From contig OZ231126.1 of NCBI GenBank assembly GCA_965153355.1, forward strand, positions 22,568,001 to 22,632,000: a stretch of DNA of 64,000 nucleotides, in the 5' to 3' direction. The translations under genes and the position numbers were made by a program. Source of the DNA: Flaccisagitta enflata. Taxonomy: Eukaryota. This document shows positions 6,272-19,731 of this stretch, piece after piece (the stretch's first letter is position 1; the number at the start of each line of letters is the position of its first letter). Under the pieces are notes generated by a model. It worked only from the letters and a program-made list of their open reading frames with translations. It was not told the origin of the DNA and searched no databases.

Positions 6272-6354
<83 letters not shown>

Positions 6355-6362
6355 TCTCTCTC

Positions 6363-7277
6363 TATAAATTACGCCCACGAGTTTCAACTGGCACTGTCTA
6401 TGAGCGTCTATCTGACTGACGACTTGTGGTGAAAGAAAGTTGGCCGATTGGAAAATAGGAAGGCGATCGTCTCGTTTATTCCATAAAAATTTCAACAACT
6501 GAAGAGAGGGGGAAAAATGAAAGGGAAAGTGGGCGTTACTTGTGATCAGCAAACGCAAAAGATAACATGAAATCGAGATAGGACACAATAAAGGACAGAA
6601 ACAGCACATGACAACATGTTCATCTTCTTCAGAGCCCATGCCACCTGATAATACCTGCCCCTGCCCCGGCCCATCCCATTAAATTCATCCATATCATCCC
6701 TATAGCAAGCTGATCGGGCAAGCGATAAAACCATACTAAAATCCGGCGATAAAAATGCAAAAGAGCAAAAGACAAAATAACAGACCGGAAAACAAGATAA
6801 AAAACAACGTTAATAAAAGCAAAGACGCGTCTATAAAACTTACTTTTAGGCCCACTTTCGTTGGTTTCAACCCACAGTCTGTCGAAGTCAAATTAACGTT
6901 AATTGTCCGTTCATAAGTTTATCTGCAATAAAAAGATGAGAGATTATTGAAATTAGTGAATTCCAAGGGCGCATTCAAACGATCACGAAAAATCAATCAA
7001 TCACTTTAAGAAGCAATGCCGTAAATAAATAAAATCAATCAATCCAAAAATTGGACGATACGAAAGACGAGTTACGTATGTTCGCCTACGTAATAAAAAC
7101 AAATGGCACAAAATACAAGGCGCAACCATATGGTTACCCATCTAGCGTTCAATATAAAAAATGGCGAGAAACAAAAGACGCGGGCATTGAATAATCGAGA
7201 AAGAGGAAAAGCCAAAAGCACGCAAAAGAGACAAAAGCACACATACTTAAGAAACGGACAGACATACATTTCTAACA
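6363..7277 (-). repeat. 3' LTR of the BEL/Pao element
   Basis: Direct repeat of 18722-19637 with only a handful of substitutions and small indels. The terminal ~8 bp are missing and replaced by the flanking (TC)n tract. Confidence 0.93.
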
Positions 7278-7292
7278 TTCTGCCCCATTTTT
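7278..7292 (-). other. Polypurine tract (plus-strand primer)
   Basis: AAAAATGGGGCAGAA on the minus strand lies immediately before the TGTTAG start of the 3' LTR. Confidence 0.85.
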
Positions 7293-7426
7293 GGAATTTC
7301 ACGAATTTCAAAAATCCGACATCTAGTTTCCAGTCGGGGAAACCCTACTAAAAAACCGATACTACCTTCCTTAAAAAAAATTTACATAGATACAGCCCCC
7401 GCCCCTCCCCCCCCGTCCACCGCCTC

Positions 7427-10400
7427 TTACATCCCCACCCTAACTATCAACAGATCGACGACTGCACGAATGATGATTCCCGTCCGGAAAGGATCCACCA
7501 CCAGCAAATTTTCAACGATCAACGATGACGCGGATGGAGACGAGGCGGCGACGAGGAGGTTGAGGCGCCCGTTCTGTGAAAGTTAAAGGGAAGGGGGGGG
7601 GAAGGGGAACGGGCCTTGGAGCACTCCAAGCCTGGGATTTGACTTGAGAGTGGAAAATAATAAGTGGGGGCATACTACTAAAACATGTCATACGAAAGTA
7701 TTCGTAATAATGACTAAAAAGACCATGTCTAAAACAAACACAACAAAAATGTACATGTTCCAAAGAACCAAACAAAACAAGACAAAATTAAATAAATTAC
7801 TAACTATATAATAAAAACGAATCTGTTAAATAAAAGAAAAATTAGTAAGCATCATGGAACGACCACATCACCTGCGCCTTCTCCATTACAGAGACGAGCG
7901 GGTCATTCCGGCTCCAACATCTCGTCAACTCGTGGGCGAAAGGCGATGAATGATGTCGTCAACGGCGACCGCATCGAAAGGCGCAGGTGGTGCAGCCGTC
8001 TGAGAGTGAATCTCCTCCCCGAAGGGAAGACAAAGAAAGAGAAAGAACAGGGGCAGATTGATTAGTAAAGTTCTTATCGTACACAGATTCAAATTTACCA
8101 CAAAAACTCAACCTCAACCCTTCCCAAACCATGATACTTACGCGGGCGTTTTTCGCCAGGCCCCGGGGCGGACGTCATTCCCACGCCCCGGGTAGCGCCC
8201 CCGACTTGGCCGGCCTGTCCATCGATGGGATGAGGATGTGATGGTGGAATACGATCCTCAGCGAATGGCGGCGCTCTCCACGCCATGTTGCAAATTGGTA
8301 GTTAAATTGAACAGCAACTGGGCGTGGCACCAATCAGCGTTTAGCTGGCGGTCTGATTTTTCCAAGGCCTGGTTCGATTTTTCTTATTCCCAGGCTTGGG
8401 AGCGTCTTTTTGCGACAGGATCTGCTGACCGACTTTTTCTGCAGGAGAAGACGCAGGAGGTGGAGATGCTGCATCGCAATTCGGCGCCAGTCAAAATTTA
8501 GGACGCACAGCGGACGCAGTTTTGAAGTCGACGGCCATAGCCGCCTTTGCGCGTTCCACCGCTTCCTCTTTCTTCTTAGCCTTCATCGCACAGGCCTGCT
8601 TCTCCTTTTCAAGCTGCTTCTCCAGTTCCACGACTCGCTTATTGCCTTTGACCACCTCATTGTCCGCAGCCATTGCTGCTCGACGAGCATCGTCTCTCTC
8701 CTTTTGGATGTTGCGCGAATCCTCTCGTCTAAGACAACGAGCCTTCAACTCGTTGACGCGGAGGAAGCGACGAAGAAGTCTTTTGGAAGCCTTGATGCTA
8801 AATTCTTCACCACCCCCAATGGAGCATTTGAGGTCAGTAAAGAGGCTTCTCGTAGCAATGACTCGGCGATGTGGTGTCCATGCGCAGGATCAAAGGCTGG
8901 ATCCGACGGGGGAGGCGGGTTCTGCACTTGCTGCAGACCTTGGGCAGACTCGGTTTGCTGACGAGGCGCTACACCAGCTTTAACAGATGCTGAAGCACCG
9001 CCAACTAGTTCGCTTCCTACCGCTGCTTTTGATGGCTGCGAGTGAAAGGAAGACGCTCCCGTCTGCTGACCAGAGACTTGAGGTTTAACAGCGGACGCCG
9101 AAGCACCGCAAGTAGAACCTCCCTTGGTTGCTGCTTTATGCTTCTTCCCAGCTCTCTTGGTCTTCTTCCCCTTTGCTGCCGCTGCCCCAGGCGCCTGATT
9201 CAGCTTCTGGGTTGCTGCCAACGTTGCCGTCGACGAACCGCTTGAAGCTTCTCCTTGGCCTTTGGGCGTTACTGCTGCAGGGGGCGCGCCTGGAGGCGCT
9301 TGAAGGGGGCCTTTGCTTTTGGAATTTGGCCCTTTTTGTAGACTCGGCACGTTGCGCGTTTGTGGAGTCTTTCCCCGACGTGATCTCTTCGACTGTTGTG
9401 AGGGAGTGACGTCACGAGGACCCTGTTGCTGCTGATTTGGGGGATGAACCAATCCAGGCGCGATTGACGACTTCCTGATGCTGTAGAGTGAATTGCCGCT
9501 GATGTAGCTGCGGCTGCGTCGAGCACAAATACCGCTGGTGGAGTTGCGGAAGCGTCGACGGAAGTTGCTGCAGATGAATTTGCAGTTGCATCAGGAGGCT
9601 TCGGAGCCGCATTCTTCCTCTTCGTCGCCTGGACCATGCGACGAACCTCCTTATCATGCTCCCTCCTTCTTTTGTTGCTTTGGATTTTGCGCTCCAGAGT
9701 CTCCGAGCCAAGCTCTGTTTGATTAGCCGATGAGCGCATGAGAGTTTGTTTGTTGCAGCATACCGAAAGTTTTTCAAACTCTTTGAAGAGGAGAGATACT
9801 TCGACGTCCGGACTGATGATACGATACCACCAACGCGCCTGCATCCGTTGGTGTTTCTCTTCCGGCGTCGCAGTGTCCACTTCCGGGTCAATGTCTTTCT
9901 CCACCGCCTCCCCATTCACTAACACCTCCTCCTCTGTCTCCATCCCCTCCTCCTCCACTCTTGCTCCATCATTGACCGATCTCTCTCTCTCTTCGCCCCC
10001 GCTGCGTTGACGTGCAGCTGCAGACGCTTGATCACGAGACGCTGGGCGACCGAAATCAAGGCAGAATTGGCGAGGCGATGGGGGCAAATCCGATGATGAT
10101 GACGCCGCCGCAGAAGTGGTGGATAAGTCCGTCGGCGGCCGATTGATCGAGATCCGCCTCGAACCTCCATCTTTGATGACCACCAATGGAGGAAGCGACG
10201 CAGGATCAACGGCTGGATGGCTGTTGACGATTTACCAACGCATCATCTTGTTGGCGCTTTTTATTCGCCATTTTGCGTCTACGACGGAAGGCGAGGTCGC
10301 CATTGAAGGCTGCCAACGCGACAGCCTCCTCCTCCGCCCGAACGACGTCGTGGATGCAGATCCTTCAGTGAGCCGTCGTTGAAGAGTCGATGAAGATCCA

Positions 10401-10549
10401 AGGATCCGTACGACGTCGACACGTCGGCTTCTGCCTCGAGACGCTGCTGACGGGACATCTTGACTCCGACGAGCGACTTCAAGATGCGAACTGACTTCGT
10501 AGATGGAATGACGTCGTCAGCGGAAGCTTTGAAATGTTCGTATTGAGAA
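7427..10549 (-). CDS. Putative accessory gene of the retrotransposon; frameshifted and probably spliced; function unknown
   Basis: Chain of overlapping GC-rich sense ORFs (10279-10578, 9269-10186, 8745-9452, 8491-8748, 8095-8286). Candidate splice sites: acceptor at 10550, donor at 8141, acceptor at 8000 or 8015, donor at 7871, acceptor at 7574. Confidence 0.6.
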
Positions 10550-10808
10550 CTGACAATGGTAAGAACGGATTTTGGCACAATAATATGTACATATAGACAG
10601 AGCGAATGAATCAGTGTTTGATGTGTAAGTGGAAATGGACAACATAATTAACAAGAGGAAAGATGAAAGCATGGATAATCAGAACCAAATATGAATAATA
10701 ACAACTCTTTGTAAATATAACAAGTCAGAGTCTCAATCACTCATATCTATAGTTACTAATGGACAGGCCCATGCGCCTTTTTCTCTCTCTCTCGAAACTT
10801 AGCGTTTT

Positions 10809-12452
10809 TTATGAGTCCAATTCCAGCCGCACGAGCTTCGTGCGGTCTTTCGTCACGATCTTTCCATCTTGGCGCCGGATGTGAGCCCTCCGGACATGGG
10901 CTGACGAACCCTCGACGCCCATGACACGTCCTAAACTCCAATTGTGACGAGGCAGCGTTTCGTCCACGACGATGACCATGTCATCCACCGCAAAGTCTTT
11001 CTCGGATCTCGACCATTTGCTTCGCGCGTGAAGAAGCGACAAATATTCGACCCTCCACGATTTCCAAAATGCATCCACACGCGATTGCGCACGCCTCCAT
11101 TGAATCTTCGCAGAGTCGGCGTCAGAGTTGACGCCTTGTTGCACCAGATCTAGAGGGGCGCGACCGGATGTCGATGGATTGAGGATATGATTCGGTGTGA
11201 GGGCCTCAGAGTCATTTGGATCATCGCTGAGCGCTGTCAGAGGACGGCGGTTGAGAATTCCTTCAACTTCGACAACGGCAGTGTTGAAGGCGTCGACGTG
11301 GAGGATGGCGCCAGTCGAGATGGAAGCAAGATGGCGCTTAAAGAGAGCGACGATTCTCTCCCACACCCCTCCATAGTGGGGTGTTCTCGGCGTGATGAAA
11401 TCCCACCGAAGGCCGCGCCGCTGCAATTCTGGAGTTGACGAGCGGTTCCACGCTTCCATTTCCTTCTTGAGGATATTATTGGCGCCTACTAGATTCGTCC
11501 CGCAATCTGAAGTGAAACGGCGGATTCCTGGGCGCCTTGCTGCAAAGCGGATGATTGCATTTACCATCGCATCGGCTGACATGTTGAAGAGCAATTCCAC
11601 ATGGACGGCGCGTGACACGAAACAGGTGAACACTGCGATCCACACCTTGTGATCAGCACGCCCGTTCATCTTCACCAGGAAATGCCCCATGACATCCAAT
11701 CCAGTCTCTGCAAAGACAGGTGCAGGATTGACGCGATTTGATGGAAGATTGGCCATTTGCTGATTTGCGTTCTTTTTAAAGTTCTTCTGGCATCTGAAGC
11801 ATGTGTTGACGACGCTCTTGACAGCCTGAAGACCTTTGTAATCCACACAAATTGGCAATTGGCACAATGTATGCTTTGCACCCGCGTGAAAATCATTGTG
11901 ATGATAATGGCGAATCAATGATTTCACATTCTTGTCTTTTGGCGGCAGGATGAAGGGAAATTTAGCGTCATGTGCGATGTCGGCGTTTTCCAATCGACTG
12001 CCGACGCGAATGATACCGTCGTCGTCGACGAAGGGATTCAATTTCCGCATCTCTTTATTCTTTATGATGAAGTCATGACGGCTTTCTGGTTTAAAGACTT
12101 TTCCCAACTCCAATTGTTCGAAGATGTCTGAATAATGATGCCGCTGCATTGACTTGACGAGCTGTTTGCGCGCCTCCTCCAAGACGTCTTGCGTCACTTC
12201 CGGTTTAGGAAGGAGATCCTTTGCTGCTCGTGTCTTCGCCCTTGGATACGCTCTCCATCTTTTGACTGCGATAAGAACCATGCCGATGATCCGCAACTTG
12301 TGCATCCATTTTCCCCGAGAAGCTGCTGCAAGAAGTATCGCGTCAGCCACTTGTCTCTTTTCACTTTCAGCCACATACAATGCGGCGACTTGTGCAGAAA
12401 TAGGGCACGTCGCGATGTTCGTCTTTGGCCATTGATCTTCGGGAAGACGCAA
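10809..12452 (-). CDS. pol: Pol: integrase (HHCC, DDE core, C-terminal domain)
   Basis: LNPFVDDDGIIRVGSRL, HHNDFHAG...CFRC, GLDVMGHF, SDCGTNLVGA, GGVWERIV, LTPNHIL, WSLGRV. Confidence 0.95.
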   Translation of the reverse strand: MRLPEDQWPKTNIATCPISAQVAALYVAESEKRQVADAILLAAASRGKWMHKLRIIGMVLIAVKRWRAYPRAKTRAAKDLLPKPEVTQDVLEEARKQLVKSMQRHHYSDIFEQLELGKVFKPESRHDFIIKNKEMRKLNPFVDDDGIIRVGSRLENADIAHDAKFPFILPPKDKNVKSLIRHYHHNDFHAGAKHTLCQLPICVDYKGLQAVKSVVNTCFRCQKNFKKNANQQMANLPSNRVNPAPVFAETGLDVMGHFLVKMNGRADHKVWIAVFTCFVSRAVHVELLFNMSADAMVNAIIRFAARRPGIRRFTSDCGTNLVGANNILKKEMEAWNRSSTPELQRRGLRWDFITPRTPHYGGVWERIVALFKRHLASISTGAILHVDAFNTAVVEVEGILNRRPLTALSDDPNDSEALTPNHILNPSTSGRAPLDLVQQGVNSDADSAKIQWRRAQSRVDAFWKSWRVEYLSLLHARSKWSRSEKDFAVDDMVIVVDETLPRHNWSLGRVMGVEGSSAHVRRAHIRRQDGKIVTKDRTKLVRLELDS

Positions 12453-12960
12453 AAATGCAGGACCGTGATGGAATTGACGCCATTTTTCGGCTTCATGGGC
12501 CTGGATGCCTCTGCTGCAGTGGTCCGCCGGGTTGTTTGACGAATCAACCCAGCGCCACTGTTGAGGATCAGACCGCTATGGATCTTGGAGAGACGATTGG
12601 CGAAAAATACAGGCCTCGGTTTCGCCGGATTGTAAATCATCTTCAGTGCAGATTCAGAATCGGACCAAAATCTGACGACAAGATTGTCCAAATCGATGGT
12701 CCTTCCGACGAAGCGTTTAAGCTGCACTGCTTTTTCTGCGGATACAATCTCGACACGTGGAACGCTGTTGTGATGAGAAGCACGTTTGGGATTAAGTGGA
12801 ATGACGTGGGATTTGGAGCGATGAACGAAATGTGAACATCTCCATCTCGATTGACTTGACGTCGATATGCAACTGCTCCATATCCGCCTTTTGGAGCCGC
12901 ATCGCAAAAGATCTCAATTGTTATTTCCGCAATGTCACTATTGTCGACGCCGCCATTCCT
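12453..12960 (-). pseudogene. pol: Pol RNase H segment, frameshifted
   Basis: IFCDAAPKGGYGAVAYRR, SKSHVIP...VPRVEI...FWSDSESAL...FFANRLSKI and NNPADHCSRG occur in the expected order but in three different frames. Confidence 0.85.
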
Positions 12961-14854
12961 CAGCGTTCAATTGGTATTGTTGTAGAAGAGGCCAAGATGA
13001 AGTGTAGCGGAAGAAGGACTCCTCGACGCTCTCTTCCAAGGGCGAATCCCATCCCACTTCCTGTGGACGACAGAGTTGAAGATGTCGTCTGCCGATGTAT
13101 GCGCTTGGGCTCCAAAATCCCAATGGATCATAAAGTTTGGCTTGCATGGAGACCAATTGACGAGGTGTTTTCGCTCTAAGAGTTTTGAATTCCTCGTCGC
13201 AGATGAAGATGAAGACGTCTTCCGCCGGAAGCCATGAGACGCCCAACACCTTCGTCGGCGCATCATCTTGCTTATCTGAGATGGGAATTGGCACGTTCGG
13301 ATCTCCATCCATCAATTGCCGCGCATTACTTTTCCACTTCACAAGATCCATCCCGCCTTCAGCCATCGCCGCCACTGCATCCACCTTCAACTGCAATGCT
13401 TCGTCGACCGAATCCCCACCCCCACTTCCGTCGTCGACGTAGTAGCAGAAGCGAATAAGATCGTAGTCGTTGTAGGGATATTTGGGCCGGATTACTTCAG
13501 CATGCTTTCTGACGGTGAAAGACGTGACGAATGAGCTGGATTGGCTGCCGAAGACATGTGATAAGAACAGATTCAAAATGGCTTCTCGTAAAGTACGGTC
13601 TTTGAACCAAAAGAATCTGAACAGATCAGCGTCGTCAGGATGGACGCGGATCTGGTGGAAGAACGCCTTTATATCACACATAAAGGCGATCTTCCACTGA
13701 CGAAAACGCATGAGGATGTCCATCAAGCTGTTCATCAAGTTTGGACCTCCGACGAGCAAATCATTGAGTGAGATCCCGTCGGTCGCCGCACGCGCATCGT
13801 GACATACGCGCGTTTTGCCGCGCAATTCAACAATATGAAGCGGCAAGTACCAGCGCGGCTTCTCAATGCCGTCGTCGTCGTCGACATTGTCAATCTCAAC
13901 CGCCACTCCCGTCTCGTAAAACTTCTCGATTTCACGGAAGACTCTTTCTTTGAAGGCTGGATCACGCTTGAAGCGAAAACGTTGGTTACCGAGCCGCTTC
14001 ATCGCAGTCGGTCGTGATTTCACTCTTCTCAGAATTTCCATGATTTTTTCGTGATGAAATTTCCATGTGACGGGAGCAAAGTACTTTTTCACAATTGGGC
14101 AAAAATATGTCTTTTCCTCTAACGTTTTGCACGCTCTGACATTTTCAAGGGAATCACCCATCTCCTCTTGCGAGACGATTGATGATGCAAAGTCATGGTA
14201 GAAGATGCGGTCAATGTTGCTGTTGAGGACGCGATTGTCGAGGATGCGATCGATGTTATCGTTGAGGACGCGATCATCCGTCGCGATAGCGTTGATCGAC
14301 GCAATATCTCGTCCTCTCTTGCCCGTTTTTCCACATACAGTCCAACCGAATAGACATCTGAAGCAAGTCAAAGATCCTGAAGGCCCTCGACGGATTTCTT
14401 GAGCGACGGCGGCATCCGCATGCGCCGCTCCGATGATCATCATCACACCGCCTTCAGCTTCTGGAAATTTTATGCCTTCGATGTGAGGTTGGTCGGATAG
14501 GTCGCGGAGAAAAGGAGGAATGTCGCGTTCACTCGTTAACAAATCACCCACCAATGCGTCGTTGACGTCGACGATGTATTCCTCGTCGACAGATTGCATA
14601 GTGAATGATGCGATGAAACGATCCTCAACAACATGACTTCCCACAGTAATCACCGTCATTTGCACTGTTTTTGTTGGAATCAGAAGACTGCGAATGACGC
14701 TGGTACTGATCACGTCGCGATCAGCGCCTGAGTCGATCATAGCGTATATTGTCCTCTGCGCACCCGAAGAATTGTTTATGATAGTCACTGGAACGATCGG
14801 ACGGACAACGTCGTCGAATGAAGAGACGGACCGCGACGTTGCCGTCGCCGCCAG
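12938..14854 (-). CDS. pol: Pol: aspartic protease, reverse transcriptase and start of the Pao RNase H region
   Basis: YAMIDSGADRDVIS (protease). WYLPLH...RVCHDA...LNDLLVGGPNL...CDIKAFFHQI...YYVDDG (RT). KVLGVSW...LYDPLGFWSP. In frame with gag across a TGA. Confidence 0.95.
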   Translation of the reverse strand: MAATATSRSVSSFDDVVRPIVPVTIINNSSGAQRTIYAMIDSGADRDVISTSVIRSLLIPTKTVQMTVITVGSHVVEDRFIASFTMQSVDEEYIVDVNDALVGDLLTSERDIPPFLRDLSDQPHIEGIKFPEAEGGVMMIIGAAHADAAVAQEIRRGPSGSLTCFRCLFGWTVCGKTGKRGRDIASINAIATDDRVLNDNIDRILDNRVLNSNIDRIFYHDFASSIVSQEEMGDSLENVRACKTLEEKTYFCPIVKKYFAPVTWKFHHEKIMEILRRVKSRPTAMKRLGNQRFRFKRDPAFKERVFREIEKFYETGVAVEIDNVDDDDGIEKPRWYLPLHIVELRGKTRVCHDARAATDGISLNDLLVGGPNLMNSLMDILMRFRQWKIAFMCDIKAFFHQIRVHPDDADLFRFFWFKDRTLREAILNLFLSHVFGSQSSSFVTSFTVRKHAEVIRPKYPYNDYDLIRFCYYVDDGSGGGDSVDEALQLKVDAVAAMAEGGMDLVKWKSNARQLMDGDPNVPIPISDKQDDAPTKVLGVSWLPAEDVFIFICDEEFKTLRAKTPRQLVSMQAKLYDPLGFWSPSAYIGRRHLQLCRPQEVGWDSPLEESVEESFFRYTSSWPLLQQYQLNAEEWRRRQ

Positions 14855-17800
14855 TCATGCCGTGGCGTTAGGAGAGATGATTTCCGTTGGATCGGCTGCC
14901 TCCGTCGTCGACGGAGCTGTTGGTGCTGCTGCAGCCGCATCCTCTGACTTTTTGAAGGGAGCCAGCGGTACTTTATTTCCCTGCTTATTTTCTCCTTTCT
15001 TCTCTTCCTTTTCTTCTTTCTTGTAGGTGCGCCCGTGGAGAATCGTTGCGTGCCGCTTCTTGCAGGTTTGGCAAGTCGGTCTGTTCGCGCATCCTTTGGC
15101 GTTGTGTCCTGGCGCGAGGCAGTGGAAGCAAAGACGACGAGACATGATCTTTTGAACTCTCGCGTCCACTTCCAACTCTAATAGCTGATGACACTCTTCT
15201 GTTTGATGCATTCCACTGCAGACGTTGCAGCGGTCCGTCGACTGCGTCTTTTGCTTGCCATTGGTCAAAGCATCTTCATATGATGATGGCGCTTCTTTCT
15301 CTGTAGTTGCGACTGCTGCCACTGATGCTGTTTTGCAGCTTGCGCCTTTGTTGCGCTGAATCACCGCCCATGTCTCGATCATATTGACCAAGTTGTCAAA
15401 TGAAAATAATTGTCCATTTTGGGCCGCTTCATGTTGCTTTTCCCAGAATTTATCTGCAAGATGAGGGACCCTCTTGTTGAGGATCTCCTGCAGCAGCTCG
15501 TCACGATAGCATTGTTGCACTTCTCCACAGGTCCTCGCAATCTTCTTTGCCTTTTGCAACCTTGCAGACAAATTGAAATGCCTTGCATGGTCAGCCGACT
15601 GGATCTTCGCCTCCGCGACGATTTCGTTGAACAGCGCCGCAATGTTGCAGCGCCTTGCCATAAAGACGACGTCCATTTTTGCGAAGGCGTCGTCAATCTC
15701 TCCTCTTGCTGTCGCTTCAGTTGCATCAATCGTCGCAGTTTCAATGATCTCTTTTGCCGGACCAGCAAACCACTTAGGCAATTCCAATAAGATGTCCATT
15801 TGCGTCAAGCCTTCATGCTTCTCAGCATCTTTGAACTTCCTCTTCCACATCATGAAGTCGGTGGATGAAAGCTCCTGCAGAGGCTTCTCAGGTCTTGCTC
15901 TCTCCAACGCTTTGAGGCCGACCTCCCTTGCTCGCATGAGATCATTGTACGTCGCTCTTTCCAAAAACCTGTCCAGAGCCGGATTGTTGGGCATCTGAAC
16001 GTGGACTTCCGGTTGACGGGCTACTTGATGATGCTCCACTTGATGATACGCTGGGGGTTGTTGGGTAAAGGCGTATTGACCCCCGACTTTTACCGGAGAT
16101 CTCTTTTTGGTGGTTTTTACACTCCACCCAACTTCTTCTTGCTGATTCATCTGTTGTTGACGATCATCTTGATGGAATCGGGGAGCATCAAAATCTTGGC
16201 GGACGTACTGTCGCTGTTGTTGTTCTTCTTTACGTTGTTTCTCTTCTGCTCTCGCTGCGGCAAGGTCAAAGTCTCTCTGCTGAATCTGCATCTTCAAACT
16301 ATCCACTTCTTGCTGCAAACGTTGATTCTGCTGGATGACTTCCGCTTGAGGCGTTGCTAGAGGCGCTTGCGCTACTTTTGGCGCCTTCGGCTGCAATCCA
16401 CTCGTTGTCTTCTTGGGAGCGACTTTTCTCCTCTCCTTATCTTGCAGCTGCTGTGCCAACTTCGCGTCAGCGGCCTCTTGCCTCTGCCTCCTGCGCATCG
16501 CCTCCGTTGCTTCACCTCCGCTTCCGGCTGTGTTGAAGACCTTTTCCTCTTGATGGGGAAGACCAGTCTCCCTTCTAGCAGAACCAATCTGCTTCTCGAA
16601 GATCACTTCCGGTGCGGTAGGGAGAATCGTTGCTGCTGGGGTTTGGTGATGCTGATCTTGATGCTGTTGCTGTTGTTGAAGCCGTTGCTGCTGCCACTGT
16701 TGATGTTGAAGCTGCTGTTGCTGGTCAGGACGCTGTTGCTGTTCATTCTGCTGTTGCAGTTGACGCTGGCGCTGTCCTTGCTGCTGCTGCTGCTCCAACT
16801 GTTGCTGCTGCTGCATCGGCTGCTTGACGGATGTTTCCACTGACTGCACATGACGTTGCTGTATGTTCGAATTGAACAATCCAGGATTGAAATTTCTGAA
16901 GATAGATCGACGGTCTTTTGGCGGATGCTGCGGCTGCTGCTGGTCCAGCTCAGACAGTTGTCTAAGCTTCACATCCCGCTGCTCTAAAGCTCCACCAATG
17001 CCGCCGTCGTTCAGGCTATTCCAGTGCTTTCGTTGCATCTCTGCCGCATTGTTGAATACTCCTGCCCTTCTATCTTCATCTCGTTGCTGCTGCTGGCGAA
17101 AGTTACACATTCTGTCGTATAACTCTTTGTCTTCTTGTGATGAGCTTCGCTGTTGGAATCCCAATGGCACCGCGATCGGCGCCTTTGGAGCTGTTGCTGC
17201 ACCACCACCTTCACCTTCAGCCATCATGCGCAGACGTTGATCTGCAAGGCGTTGCTGTCTCTCTTCTTCTGTCTCCTCACTGACGTTCATGCTTTCGACA
17301 GGATGGTTATTTGAAGCTGGAGGATCCACTACCACCGCTGGGATCGCGGCGGAGGGTTGCTGTTGCTGCTGCAGTTGCTGTTGCATATGTTCTCCTGCAT
17401 CGTTTTGCCGCTGTCGTTGTTGTTCATGCGGCTGCATTGCCGTTTGATGTTGTCGCAGCTCTTGTTGTTGTTGCTGCTGCTGCTGTTGCTGCTGTTGATC
17501 GTGTTGTTGCTGTTGTTGAGCCACAGGTTGTGGCGCCGGCTGCAGGATCTGATGTTGTTGTTGATCTTGTTGACAAAATTGTTGGAGTTGCTGCAACTGC
17601 TGCTGCTGCAACAGCTCTTGCTGCTGCCGTTGAGCCGTAGTTTGCTGCTGCTCCTGTGGCGGTTGGAGTTGACGTTGCTGTTGGAGTTGCTGCTGCTGCA
17701 TCTGCAATTGATGCTGCTGCTGTTGCTCCTGTTGCTGTCGCTGCTCCTCCTCCCGTTGTTGCTGCTGCATGTCGTCAATCAGCCGACGGCCTTGTCGCAT

Positions 17801-18659
17801 TTCCTCCTCCAACTCCCTACCCCATCTGTCTCTCTCAGCACTCCTGTTGACGAGCGTCGCCTCGCCCTCTCCTGCAGCGTCAATCCGTTGATGATCCCGC
17901 GGCCTCTTGCAGGCGTCGGCGTCGTCGAGATCCGCAAGCATGTCGTCAGCTTGCTCCATCGGAGGCGCACGCGCAGGGTTCAATTTCCGAGACCAAATCT
18001 GATACCCATTGATTGGCAGCATCTCCTCTTTGGATCGCGGCAGATTTAAAAATTGACGCCAGTTGGAGATTGCGCACCATGTCGCAGGACCGGAGGTGGT
18101 AGATACTCGGATCCGTCGGGGTTTGGCGAAGACGTTAGCATCCTTGGGTGGGAGCGCGGTAGCATTTGTCACGGGCGGCGTGGGTGTCAGTTGGGAGACA
18201 TTCCATGAGAATTCATTAGCGGGTCTTTGCGATTCCCAATGTCTGTGCACTGCGTTCCACGGTGTCGGCGTTGGAAGGAAAACCCTCTGGATAGTTTTCC
18301 ACGATCAAAGCGCATGGAGTCCCATTCGCGCAGTTCGGCGCAAAGTAGGCGCCGCTGAATCGAGAATTCGCCCGGGCATCGAGTGAGCCATTTGCCTTGC
18401 ATACGATGATGGTAAGCCATATCGAGAAGTCGTGCCGACAGCCAGTTCCTGAAGCGGCGTCGTCGAAGTCGTTCGTTCCTTCGGTTCCAGTAGCTTCGGC
18501 GTCGAAAAGGCGCCGGCATCCTTCCATTTCCGCAGTGATGTCTTTCCTCATTGCGCGCAAACGATTCGACCTCGGACACTGATTCAAACCGAAGTGAGAT
18601 ACACGAGATGACGTTGAAGCGGTCGAGCAGTGTATCGTCGTTGCAGCAACGGCTGCCAT
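14855..18659 (-). CDS. gag: BEL/Pao Gag with a very long Gln-rich N-terminal half; frameshift near 18250
   Basis: ORF 14855-18250 has CNVCSGMHQTEEC, CFHCLAPGHNAKGC and CQTCKKRHATILH, the BEL-type triple zinc knuckle. An upstream ATG at 18659 (MAAVAATTIHC...) lies just after the 5' LTR in a different frame. Confidence 0.88.
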
Positions 18660-18713
18660 TGTCCAATTTCGTTTCGGAGGTCGAGAGACGGAAAGAGTGA
18701 TAGTTTTTAAATT

Positions 18714-19635
18714 TGTTGAAATATAAATTAGCCCCACAGTTTTCAACTGGCACTGTCTATGAACGTCTATCTGACTGACGACTTGTGGTGAAAGAAAATT
18801 GGCCGATTGGAAAATAGGAAGGCGATCGTCTCGTTTATTCCATAAAAATTTCAACAACTGAAGAGGGGGAAAAATGAAGAAAGGGAAAGTGGGCGTTAAT
18901 TGTGATCAGCAAACGCAAAAGATAACATGAAATCGAGATAGGACACAATAAAGGACAGAAACAGCACATGACAACATGTTCATCTTCTTCAGAGCCCATG
19001 CCACCTGATAATTCCTGCCCCTGCCCCGGCCCATCCCATTAAATTCATCCATATCATCCCTATAGCAAGCTGATCGGGCAAGCGATAAAACCATACTAAA
19101 ATCCGGCGATAAAAATGCAAAAGAGCAAAAGACAAAATAACAGACCGGAAAACAAGATAAAAAACAACGTTAATAAAAGCAAAAACGCGTCTATAAAACT
19201 TACTTTTAGGCCCACTTTCGTTGGTTTCAACCCACAGTCTGTCGAAGTCAAATTAACGTTAATTGTCCGTTCATAAGTTTATCTGCAATAAAAAGATGAG
19301 AGATTATTGAAATTAGTGAATTCCAAGGGCGCATTCAAACGATCACGAAAAATCAATCAATCACTTTAAGAAGCAATGCCGTAAATAAATAAAATCAATC
19401 AATCCAAAAATTGGACGATACGAAAGACGAGTTACGTATGTTCGCCTACGTAATAAAAACAAATGGCACAAAATACAAGGCGCAACCATATGGTTACCCA
19501 TCTAGCGTTCAATATAAAAAATGGCGAGAAACAAAAGACGCGGGCATTGAATAATCGAGAAAGAGGAAAAGCAAAAAGCACGCAAAAGAGACAAAAGCAC
19601 ACATACTTAAGAAACGGACAGACATACATTTCTAA

Positions 19636-19637
<2 letters not shown>
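18714..19637 (-). repeat. 5' LTR of the BEL/Pao element
   Basis: On the minus strand it begins TGTTAGAAATG (19637) and ends TTTCAACA (18714), giving TGTT...AACA termini. It matches 6363-7277 and has a minus-strand AATAAA at 18834-18839. Confidence 0.93.

Positions 19638-19731
<94 letters not shown>

Follow-up and report, generated by a model that had tools for sequence, protein, structure and literature searches.

How does a BEL/Pao long terminal repeat (LTR) retrotransposon produce Pol when a stop codon stands between its gag and pol frames? Control of the Gag:Pol ratio is at the core of retroelement biology. The LTR retroelements for which readthrough is well established are mainly gamma- and epsilonretroviruses, and descriptions of BEL/Pao elements usually give a fused gag-pol frame. 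The question is raised by a 13.3-kb (13,279-nt) BEL/Pao element on the minus strand of a 64-kb stretch of the Flaccisagitta enflata genome (contig OZ231126.1 of assembly GCA_965153355.1, positions 22,568,001 to 22,632,000; hereafter the window, with coordinates counted from its first nucleotide). In this element, gag and pol share one frame and are separated by a single UGA, which a first-pass annotation had proposed to be a programmed readthrough signal. From the comparison of sequences, we infer that readthrough takes place at this stop, and we regard programmed UGA readthrough as the best explanation of the gag-UGA-pol arrangement and a likely one.

The gag-pol junction

Across the junction, the minus strand reads ...AAC GCC ACG GCA TGA CTG GCG GCG ACG GCA ACG TCG CGG.... 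The gag stop TGA occupies 14857-14855 (minus strand), with GCA before it and C (14854) after it, giving the context GCA UGA CUG. The same frame is open on either side of the TGA. Upstream lies the glutamine-rich gag frame of the open reading frame (ORF) list (18304-14858, minus strand; 1149 codons), to which the related Gag proteins P0001-P0004 align. Downstream lies the first part of pol (14854-12941, minus strand; 638 codons), in which Pfam and a fold model place a retropepsin, a probable reverse transcriptase (RT), and the start of the Pao A17 region. The frame after the stop passes VVRPIVPVTII and reaches DSGA. The first-pass annotation had described the junction correctly in its letters, in the position of the TGA and the C that follows it, and in the shared frame that stays open into the protease. 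The perfect stem-loop that it had placed 6 nt after the stop is also present (spacer CTGGCG, followed by GCGACG-GCAA-CGTCGC at 14848-14833).

The gag frame closes with TGA-C, and pol closes with TAA-A; UGA-C is a leaky stop context and UAA-A is a tight one. With the type II signals of Beier and Grimm, the junction shares an in-frame UGA, C at +4, and a position between two ORFs that both need to be translated.

Conservation of the stop among copies and relatives

The window copy is a decayed fossil that carries the signal of its family. Its pol frame is broken at approximately four places (12,975-12,570), at which contigs of other copies differ from it in length, and the 5′ part of its gag (~18300-18450) is out of frame relative to P0004. 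Because the copy is decayed, a private nonsense mutation is a fair null hypothesis: the TGA would then be a chance nonsense codon, and the hairpin a coincidence.

Relatives were obtained mostly as protein gene calls. A metagenome scan gave DNA of one close contig (L001) and one distant contig (L002); scans of viral contigs and of genome contigs yielded no DNA of relatives. L001 was 97% identical to the window (39 of 1165 nt differed), and its TGA-C and the next 58 nt were unchanged. On the gag side, 18 synonymous and 5 nonsynonymous differences were observed (ratio of nonsynonymous to synonymous rates, dN/dS, 0.07); on the pol side, there were 10 synonymous and 5 nonsynonymous differences (dN/dS 0.16). 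The excess of synonymous differences was significant (P = 5.7e-11). These ratios, with the TGA in both copies, indicate that purifying selection acted on both ORFs, with the TGA already between them, while the two lineages diverged. L001 also carries a private TAA in the protease region (homologous to 14470) and is itself a dead copy. A block of 84 identical nucleotides around the stop was considered as a special feature of the window and L001 and was rejected; it is expected at 39 differences in 1165 nt, and a block of 125 identical nucleotides occurs nearby.

Proteins were compared using a 501-residue query that spanned the junction, with the stop read as X at residue 251. No protein covered both sides of the stop among 13 matches of similar length or among seven shorter matches. 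Eight matches were longer: six of them, at 45-98% identity, were one-sided, and the other two spanned the junction at 22% identity. Classification of 176 proteins gave 64 gag-only, 66 pol-only, 45 spanning, and 1 unclassed, and the spanning proteins were only 20.6-31.3% identical to the query. In the window-family cluster, 23 of the 28 listed members ended in ...VIS[PS]N[AV]TA, which is exactly the end of the window Gag, and the remaining five stopped short of the junction. Families that were 72% and 59% identical in Gag ended in ...PP[VI]EA and ...SP.V[ET]A, respectively. The implied ends of gag-only calls with an alignment into the tail (n = 30) fell at residues 240-264. None of the 66 pol-only calls started before residue 252; 39 started at residues 254-272 and 22 at residues 285-291, a range that includes the Met next to the active site. 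Were pol in a different frame overlapping gag, some pol-only calls should begin upstream of the stop, and the fact that none does leaves no sign of such an overlap. A sense codon in other copies, which the first-pass annotation had named as evidence against its proposal, occurred in no relative that reached the junction.

In the 72% family, the gene call P0209 carries a frame shift immediately upstream of the stop; the tail that follows reads across the junction and matches the +1 frame of the window (E = 1.9e-8). Its residues constrain the codons at the junction to GCA-YGA-Y (YGA-Y-Y-U), with no difference in length over 70 nt; the YGA would be TGA if P0209 agrees with the other members of its cluster, whose calls stop at this point. 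Each derived codon could be reconciled with the pol N-terminus of P0173, and all seven base differences after +31 were synonymous in frame 0. These constraints suggest that gag and pol share a frame in the 72% family too. A -1 or +1 frameshift arrangement was found in neither the window, L001, nor the 72% family, in all of which gag and pol share one frame. When tblastn was used to look for other frame-shifted calls across the junction, P0209 was the only match other than low-complexity noise. Uninterrupted Pol ORFs of approximately 1300 residues were present at 98%, 66%, and 51% identity, and intact Pol in these relatives argues that the family was functional with the stop present.

The Gag tail of the split relatives, in which gag and pol are separate, is otherwise variable but often ends in the short motif NP[TVIM][IL], E[ST][VIM]L, or P.V[ET]A right before the stop. 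Such a motif might serve as a context for readthrough upstream of the stop, or it might be cleaved by the protease. Two calls (P0006 and P0199) end in the same unrelated tail (...SYTHLTLPTI...), which looks like a library-adaptor chimera; the ends of these two should not be taken for biology.

Origin of the stop on the protease tree

A protease tree was built from 87 rows and 200 columns from which the junction was excluded; rows were scored as split from gene calls, not from DNA. The 46 split rows fell on one side of a branch (SH-aLRT 99) and 40 fused rows fell on the other. The split or fused state required one change on this tree, vs. a mean of 28.6 changes for shuffled labels, and none of 500 shuffles gave a value as low. 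As judged from these gene calls, the stop is a conserved, clade-defining feature of one deep BEL/Pao branch, with a single origin on the protease tree. The distant relative L002 (26% identical) has a single gag-pol frame of 1844 codons. The earlier remark that gag-pol is fused in most BEL/Pao elements agrees with L002, with the 45 spanning proteins, and with Atlas virus (PMC9094657).

Chance nonsense in a decaying copy is consistent with the LTRs of the window copy being 1.7% apart, with its breaks in pol and 5′ gag, and with the private nonsense codon of L001. This explanation is extremely improbable: the same stop is found in L001; it closes all 23 of the listed Gag calls of the window family that reach it; the Gag calls of the 72% and 59% families also end there; the break between the ORFs maps to one well-supported branch of the tree; and dN/dS is low on both sides. 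Copies, dN/dS, and the protease tree bear out the view that the stop is maintained at the Gag/protease boundary and is not a random nonsense mutation.

Requirement for bypass of the stop

The stretch from the stop to the first AUG (14854-14741, minus strand) is free of AUG and encodes a variable linker followed by a conserved RPIVPV strand (14803-14786). The first AUG (14740-14738) precedes the catalytic Asp by two codons. A fold model was computed for the first 194 residues beyond the stop (pLDDT 83.6), and the best Foldseek matches of the model were the proteases of HTLV-1, RSV, and HIV, and Ddi1 (probability 0.96-1.0, E = 8e-4 to 2e-2). The model shows disorder over the first 13 residues past the stop and strands at residues 19-25 (IVPVTII) and 32-39, which are encoded upstream of or at the first AUG. 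Of the 39 relatives with early enough starts, 34 have the motif RP[IV] at a distance of approximately 23 residues upstream of the catalytic Asp. No Met position was conserved across the clade, and in at least one relative the residue called as Met is a GTG codon. According to the model, then, the stop must be bypassed, with two protease strands encoded between it and the first AUG. Because these strands precede the first AUG, only two ways of making Pol are left: to extend Gag past the stop, or to initiate in some unusual way. Readthrough is favored by the shared frame of gag and pol in two families.

The stop might be conserved and functional and yet be bypassed in another way, through reinitiation, non-AUG internal entry, a separate pol mRNA (spliced or from an internal promoter), or partial frameshifting. 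The hexanucleotide UGA-CUG, which is not a canonical type II hexanucleotide, and the restriction of known frames to part of the clade would be consistent with such a route. Against it stand the lack, in the window, of any AUG from the stop to the protease strands and the lack of a clade-wide Met; the starts of pol calls scatter over residues 254-272, as do chance ATG, GTG, or TTG codons after a stop. Frameshifting in particular is excluded in the two families in which the frame is the same, as readthrough needs. Overall, we consider another bypass unlikely.

A further alternative is that the UGA is read as an amino acid, as selenocysteine or through a reassigned host code, and that no stop exists. 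In its favor, the window stop is a UGA, and in the 72% family the codon is YGA, which would be TGA if P0209 agrees with the rest of its cluster. A search of 6300-19700 detected no SECIS element or other Rfam family at E up to 1. The Pol ORFs (1300-1332 residues) and Gag ORFs (up to 1321 residues) of relatives are open with UGA as a stop, and the absence of UGA from approximately 2600 other codons makes reassignment unlikely. Sense decoding of the UGA is, all told, very improbable.

RNA structure downstream of the stop

The first-pass annotation had attributed stimulation of readthrough to the small hairpin GCGACG-GCAA-CGTCGC, which extends from +10 to +25 (14848-14833, minus strand; stem 14848-14843, GCAA loop 14842-14839, stem 14838-14833) with a predicted energy of -9.7 kcal/mol. 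Five perfect stems of 6 bp with a 4-nt loop occur on the sense strand of the 13,279-nt element, and only this hairpin has a GNRA loop; by itself, it is slightly out of the ordinary. When loops of 3-8 nt were allowed, 25 perfect 6-bp stems were found (approximately 0.0019 per nucleotide), so that one is expected within approximately 9 positions of a given site in approximately 2% of cases. By folding energy, the 40 nt after the stop took rank 66 of 4393. The pairs of the small hairpin had a probability of only approximately 0.10 in the thermodynamic ensemble. In the 72% family, +18 is C and the loop is no longer GNRA. The ribosome entry channel covers 11-12 nt, and known stimulators start at approximately +12 (PMC13517186). 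Given that it forms in approximately 10% of the ensemble, that its start at +10 lies inside the entry channel, and that its loop is lost in the 72% family, the GNRA hairpin is probably incidental and not the stimulator, and this part of the first-pass proposal did not hold up.

An extended stem-loop is predicted from +12 to +58 (14846-14800, minus strand; 47 nt). It shares its 5′ arm with the small hairpin, and the two structures exclude each other. It has 16 bp, two 1-nt bulges, and a 13-nt loop (-22.2 kcal/mol), and its 3′ arm encodes the conserved FDDVVR motif. Its z-score was -3.41, with 1 of 200 shuffles as stable, and its pair probabilities were 0.55-0.66; the window for this fold was chosen post hoc. 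Among 13,233 windows of 47 nt, it was one of six equally stable places. In the 72% family, 14 pairs of the helix are possible, although the letters are not fixed; one pair changes from G-U to A-U, and three changes are in the loop. From these predictions, the extended stem-loop appears to be a better candidate for the stimulator than the GNRA hairpin.

The bases that flank the stop (CGCCA ... UGGCG, 14861-14849) are also predicted to pair, with a probability of approximately 0.8, and the UGA would lie in the small loop between them. Ribosomes in the course of translation would melt this pairing.

It is possible, if the less probable case, that the UGA-C context alone is leaky enough and that neither hairpin is functional. 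For UGA-CUA signals, structure is conditionally required, and in PSIV it is not stimulatory (PMC13517186). The 111-nt stretch around the site folded no better than shuffled sequences (z = -0.81). The z-score of the 47-nt stem-loop, its rank among six such places in 13.2 kb, and its start at exactly +12 argue against readthrough free of structure.

Proposed mechanism and evidence against it

Under programmed readthrough, Gag would be the product of most ribosomes, which would terminate at the UGA. The remaining small fraction would decode the UGA with a near-cognate tRNA, continue into the short flexible linker, and make a polyprotein of protease, RT, RNase H, and integrase. The stop would thereby set the ratio of Gag to Gag-Pol, as the gag UAG does in gammaretroviruses. 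The C at +4 may contribute, and the stem-loop at +12 to +58 may act as the stimulator, rather than the GNRA hairpin. The first-pass idea of a signal that sets the Gag:Pol ratio is retained here as far as the stop is concerned, which is maintained at the boundary; the part assigned to the hairpin is given up, and the readthrough is our deduction.

Several observations weigh against readthrough or limit the case for it. Readthrough is here predicted from sequence. The hexanucleotide UGA-CUG is neither UGA-CGG nor UGA-CUA, which are the classical type II readthrough motifs (PMC13517186). In Tca2, a Ty1/copia retrotransposon of Candida albicans, the gag-UGA-pol junction alone gave no readthrough in a Saccharomyces cerevisiae reporter, and a noncanonical bypass was proposed (PMC2194720). 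This result speaks for another bypass and implies that an in-frame stop alone is no proof of readthrough. The shared frame and the identity of the stop are direct in one family and indirect in one more; elsewhere in the clade there is an ORF break only, and a frameshift site would be possible there.

The predicted structure has its own difficulties. In folding energy, the 90 nt after the stop came no higher than 454th of 4393. The 18-51 pair of the extended stem-loop is probably C.C, and so broken, in the 72% family. We place the chance that the stem-loop at +12 to +58 is functional between doubtful and evenly balanced.

Expression data and the state of the copy add to these points. In one polyA RNA run of the source organism, of which approximately 6% was read, no reads fell on the element, a result too limited to bear on expression. 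In contigs of three RNA-library runs (two studies), 39-49% of the sampled words were present, with DNA carry-over possible. One of these runs covered nearly all of 12000-15397, and one of its pieces, of 296 nt, crosses the stop. The window copy is decayed, as described above. The family has very many copies, and 12,511 contigs of one DNA run matched the element; in the pile-up of copies, none of the 40 variant rows listed (of 331) fell at 14855-14857, from which no conclusion on those letters follows.

Architecture of the element

By its Pfam matches to Peptidase_A17 (7e-8, 33 bits, cut-off 22.3) and DUF5641 (2.1e-19), the element is BEL/Pao (Belpaoviridae-like). The two LTRs are 98.27% identical over 923 nt by self-BLAST. 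The 5′ LTR (18722-19641, minus strand) begins with TGTTAG and is flanked by a (GA)n repeat; the 3′ LTR (6363-7281, minus strand) was delimited by self-BLAST and by reading of its ends, and a purine-rich tract directly precedes it. Both flanks of the element are (GA)n (19642-19680 and 6335-6362), which makes a target-site duplication unreadable. The 64-kb window as a whole is dense in tandem repeats with units of 8-14 nt, in CAA/CAG runs, and in GACG-type repeats.

The likely gag start region is located upstream of the open frame, near 18551, and is out of frame in the window copy. The Gag frame matched no Pfam family. Near its C-terminus, it carries a Cys-His box with CFHC...C (15130-15089) and CQTCKKRH (15073-15050), both on the minus strand. 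Gag is very long, with 1149 codons here and up to 1321 residues in relatives (P0004, P0204, and P0208). Its length is due to glutamine-rich CAG/CAA stretches (15600-18300) that are common to the relatives and are not a private expansion.

In the first part of pol, the DSGA active site is at 14734-14723 and the YVDD motif of RT is at 13441-13430. RVT_1 matched at 2e-4 (21.6 bits, under the cut-off of 29.6), and the relatives P0016 and P0017 carry PF00078. The second part of pol (12940-10809, minus strand) contains the RNase H region and the integrase (H2C2, rve, and DUF5641, by Pfam) and ends with TAA-A (10811-10809); the rve and Integrase_H2C2 matches were weak and under their cut-offs. The order of domains, PR-RT-RH-IN, is as expected for BEL/Pao. 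Between protease and RT (~14230-14290), there is a short tandem duplication with a two-residue insert (residues DDRVLNDNIDRILDNRVLNSNIDRIF), both of which are absent from seven aligned relatives. From the pol stop to the 3′ LTR, a region of approximately 3.5 kb (10808-7282, minus strand) contains low-complexity open frames of 320 and 281 codons, which matched no Pfam family; no recognizable env was found among them.

Relation to known systems and implications

The arrangement resembles that of gammaretroviruses such as MoMLV, in which gag and pro-pol lie in one frame with a single stop between them, and in which readthrough of a few percent sets the ratio of Gag to Gag-Pol (PMC13517186, PMC4178896). 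In MoMLV, the structure starts at +12 after an 8-nt spacer (PMC13517186). The stem-loop predicted here at +12 has the same 8-nt spacer as MoMLV, VEEV, and CTFV (PMC13517186). MoMLV differs in its type III UAG-G signal, in its H-type pseudoknot, and in its place within Retroviridae, whereas the present element has UGA-C and a predicted simple stem-loop and belongs to BEL/Pao.

The alphaviruses and coltiviruses (VEEV, SINV, and CTFV) share with it UGA-C and an extended stem-loop that starts from +12 to +16, with arms in conserved coding sequence (PMC13517186). They are, in contrast, RNA viruses with CGG or CUA after the UGA and with stem-loops of 78-177 nt proven by mutagenesis; here the stop is followed by CUG, and the stem-loop is of 47 nt and predicted. 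As classified by its motif, with CUG and not CUA or CGG, the window signal is in neither the gammaretroviral class nor the alphavirus/coltivirus class.

Tca2 is similar in being an LTR retrotransposon whose gag and pol are divided by an in-frame UGA, with a structure predicted 3′ of it (PMC2194720); it differs in its superfamily and in its fungal host. With typical BEL/Pao elements (Atlas virus, 45 fused relatives, and L002), the element shares LTRs, a Gag with a Cys-His box, A17, an RT region with YVDD, the DUF5641 integrase, the same order of domains, and a homologous protease. Typical elements have gag-pol as one ORF, which in Atlas virus encodes a single polyprotein (PMC9094657), whereas here a stop lies at the boundary.

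We found no report in the literature of readthrough or of an in-frame gag stop in BEL/Pao. A survey by Gao et al. in 2003 reportedly dealt with gag/pol recoding in LTR retrotransposons and may already list BEL elements with an in-frame stop. The available portions of De la Chaux and Wagner 2011 (PMC3118150), of Llorens et al. 2009 (PMC2774666), and of the article on Sinbad (PMC554778) contain no passage on a gag stop in BEL/Pao.

Possibly, a whole old branch of BEL/Pao, represented in marine plankton metagenomes, dropped the fused gag-pol in favor of UGA readthrough with a stem-loop at +12, the 3′ arm of which is the protease N-terminal motif. If so, this would be convergent with gammaretroviruses and alphaviruses, in a superfamily for which we found no prior report of such a lineage, and it would represent an independent origin of stop-codon recoding in retroelements. 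The branch would also supply many natural variants for the study of UGA-C contexts and downstream structures in invertebrate translation. For annotation, an in-frame stop at the gag/protease boundary within the split clade is not a sign of decay.

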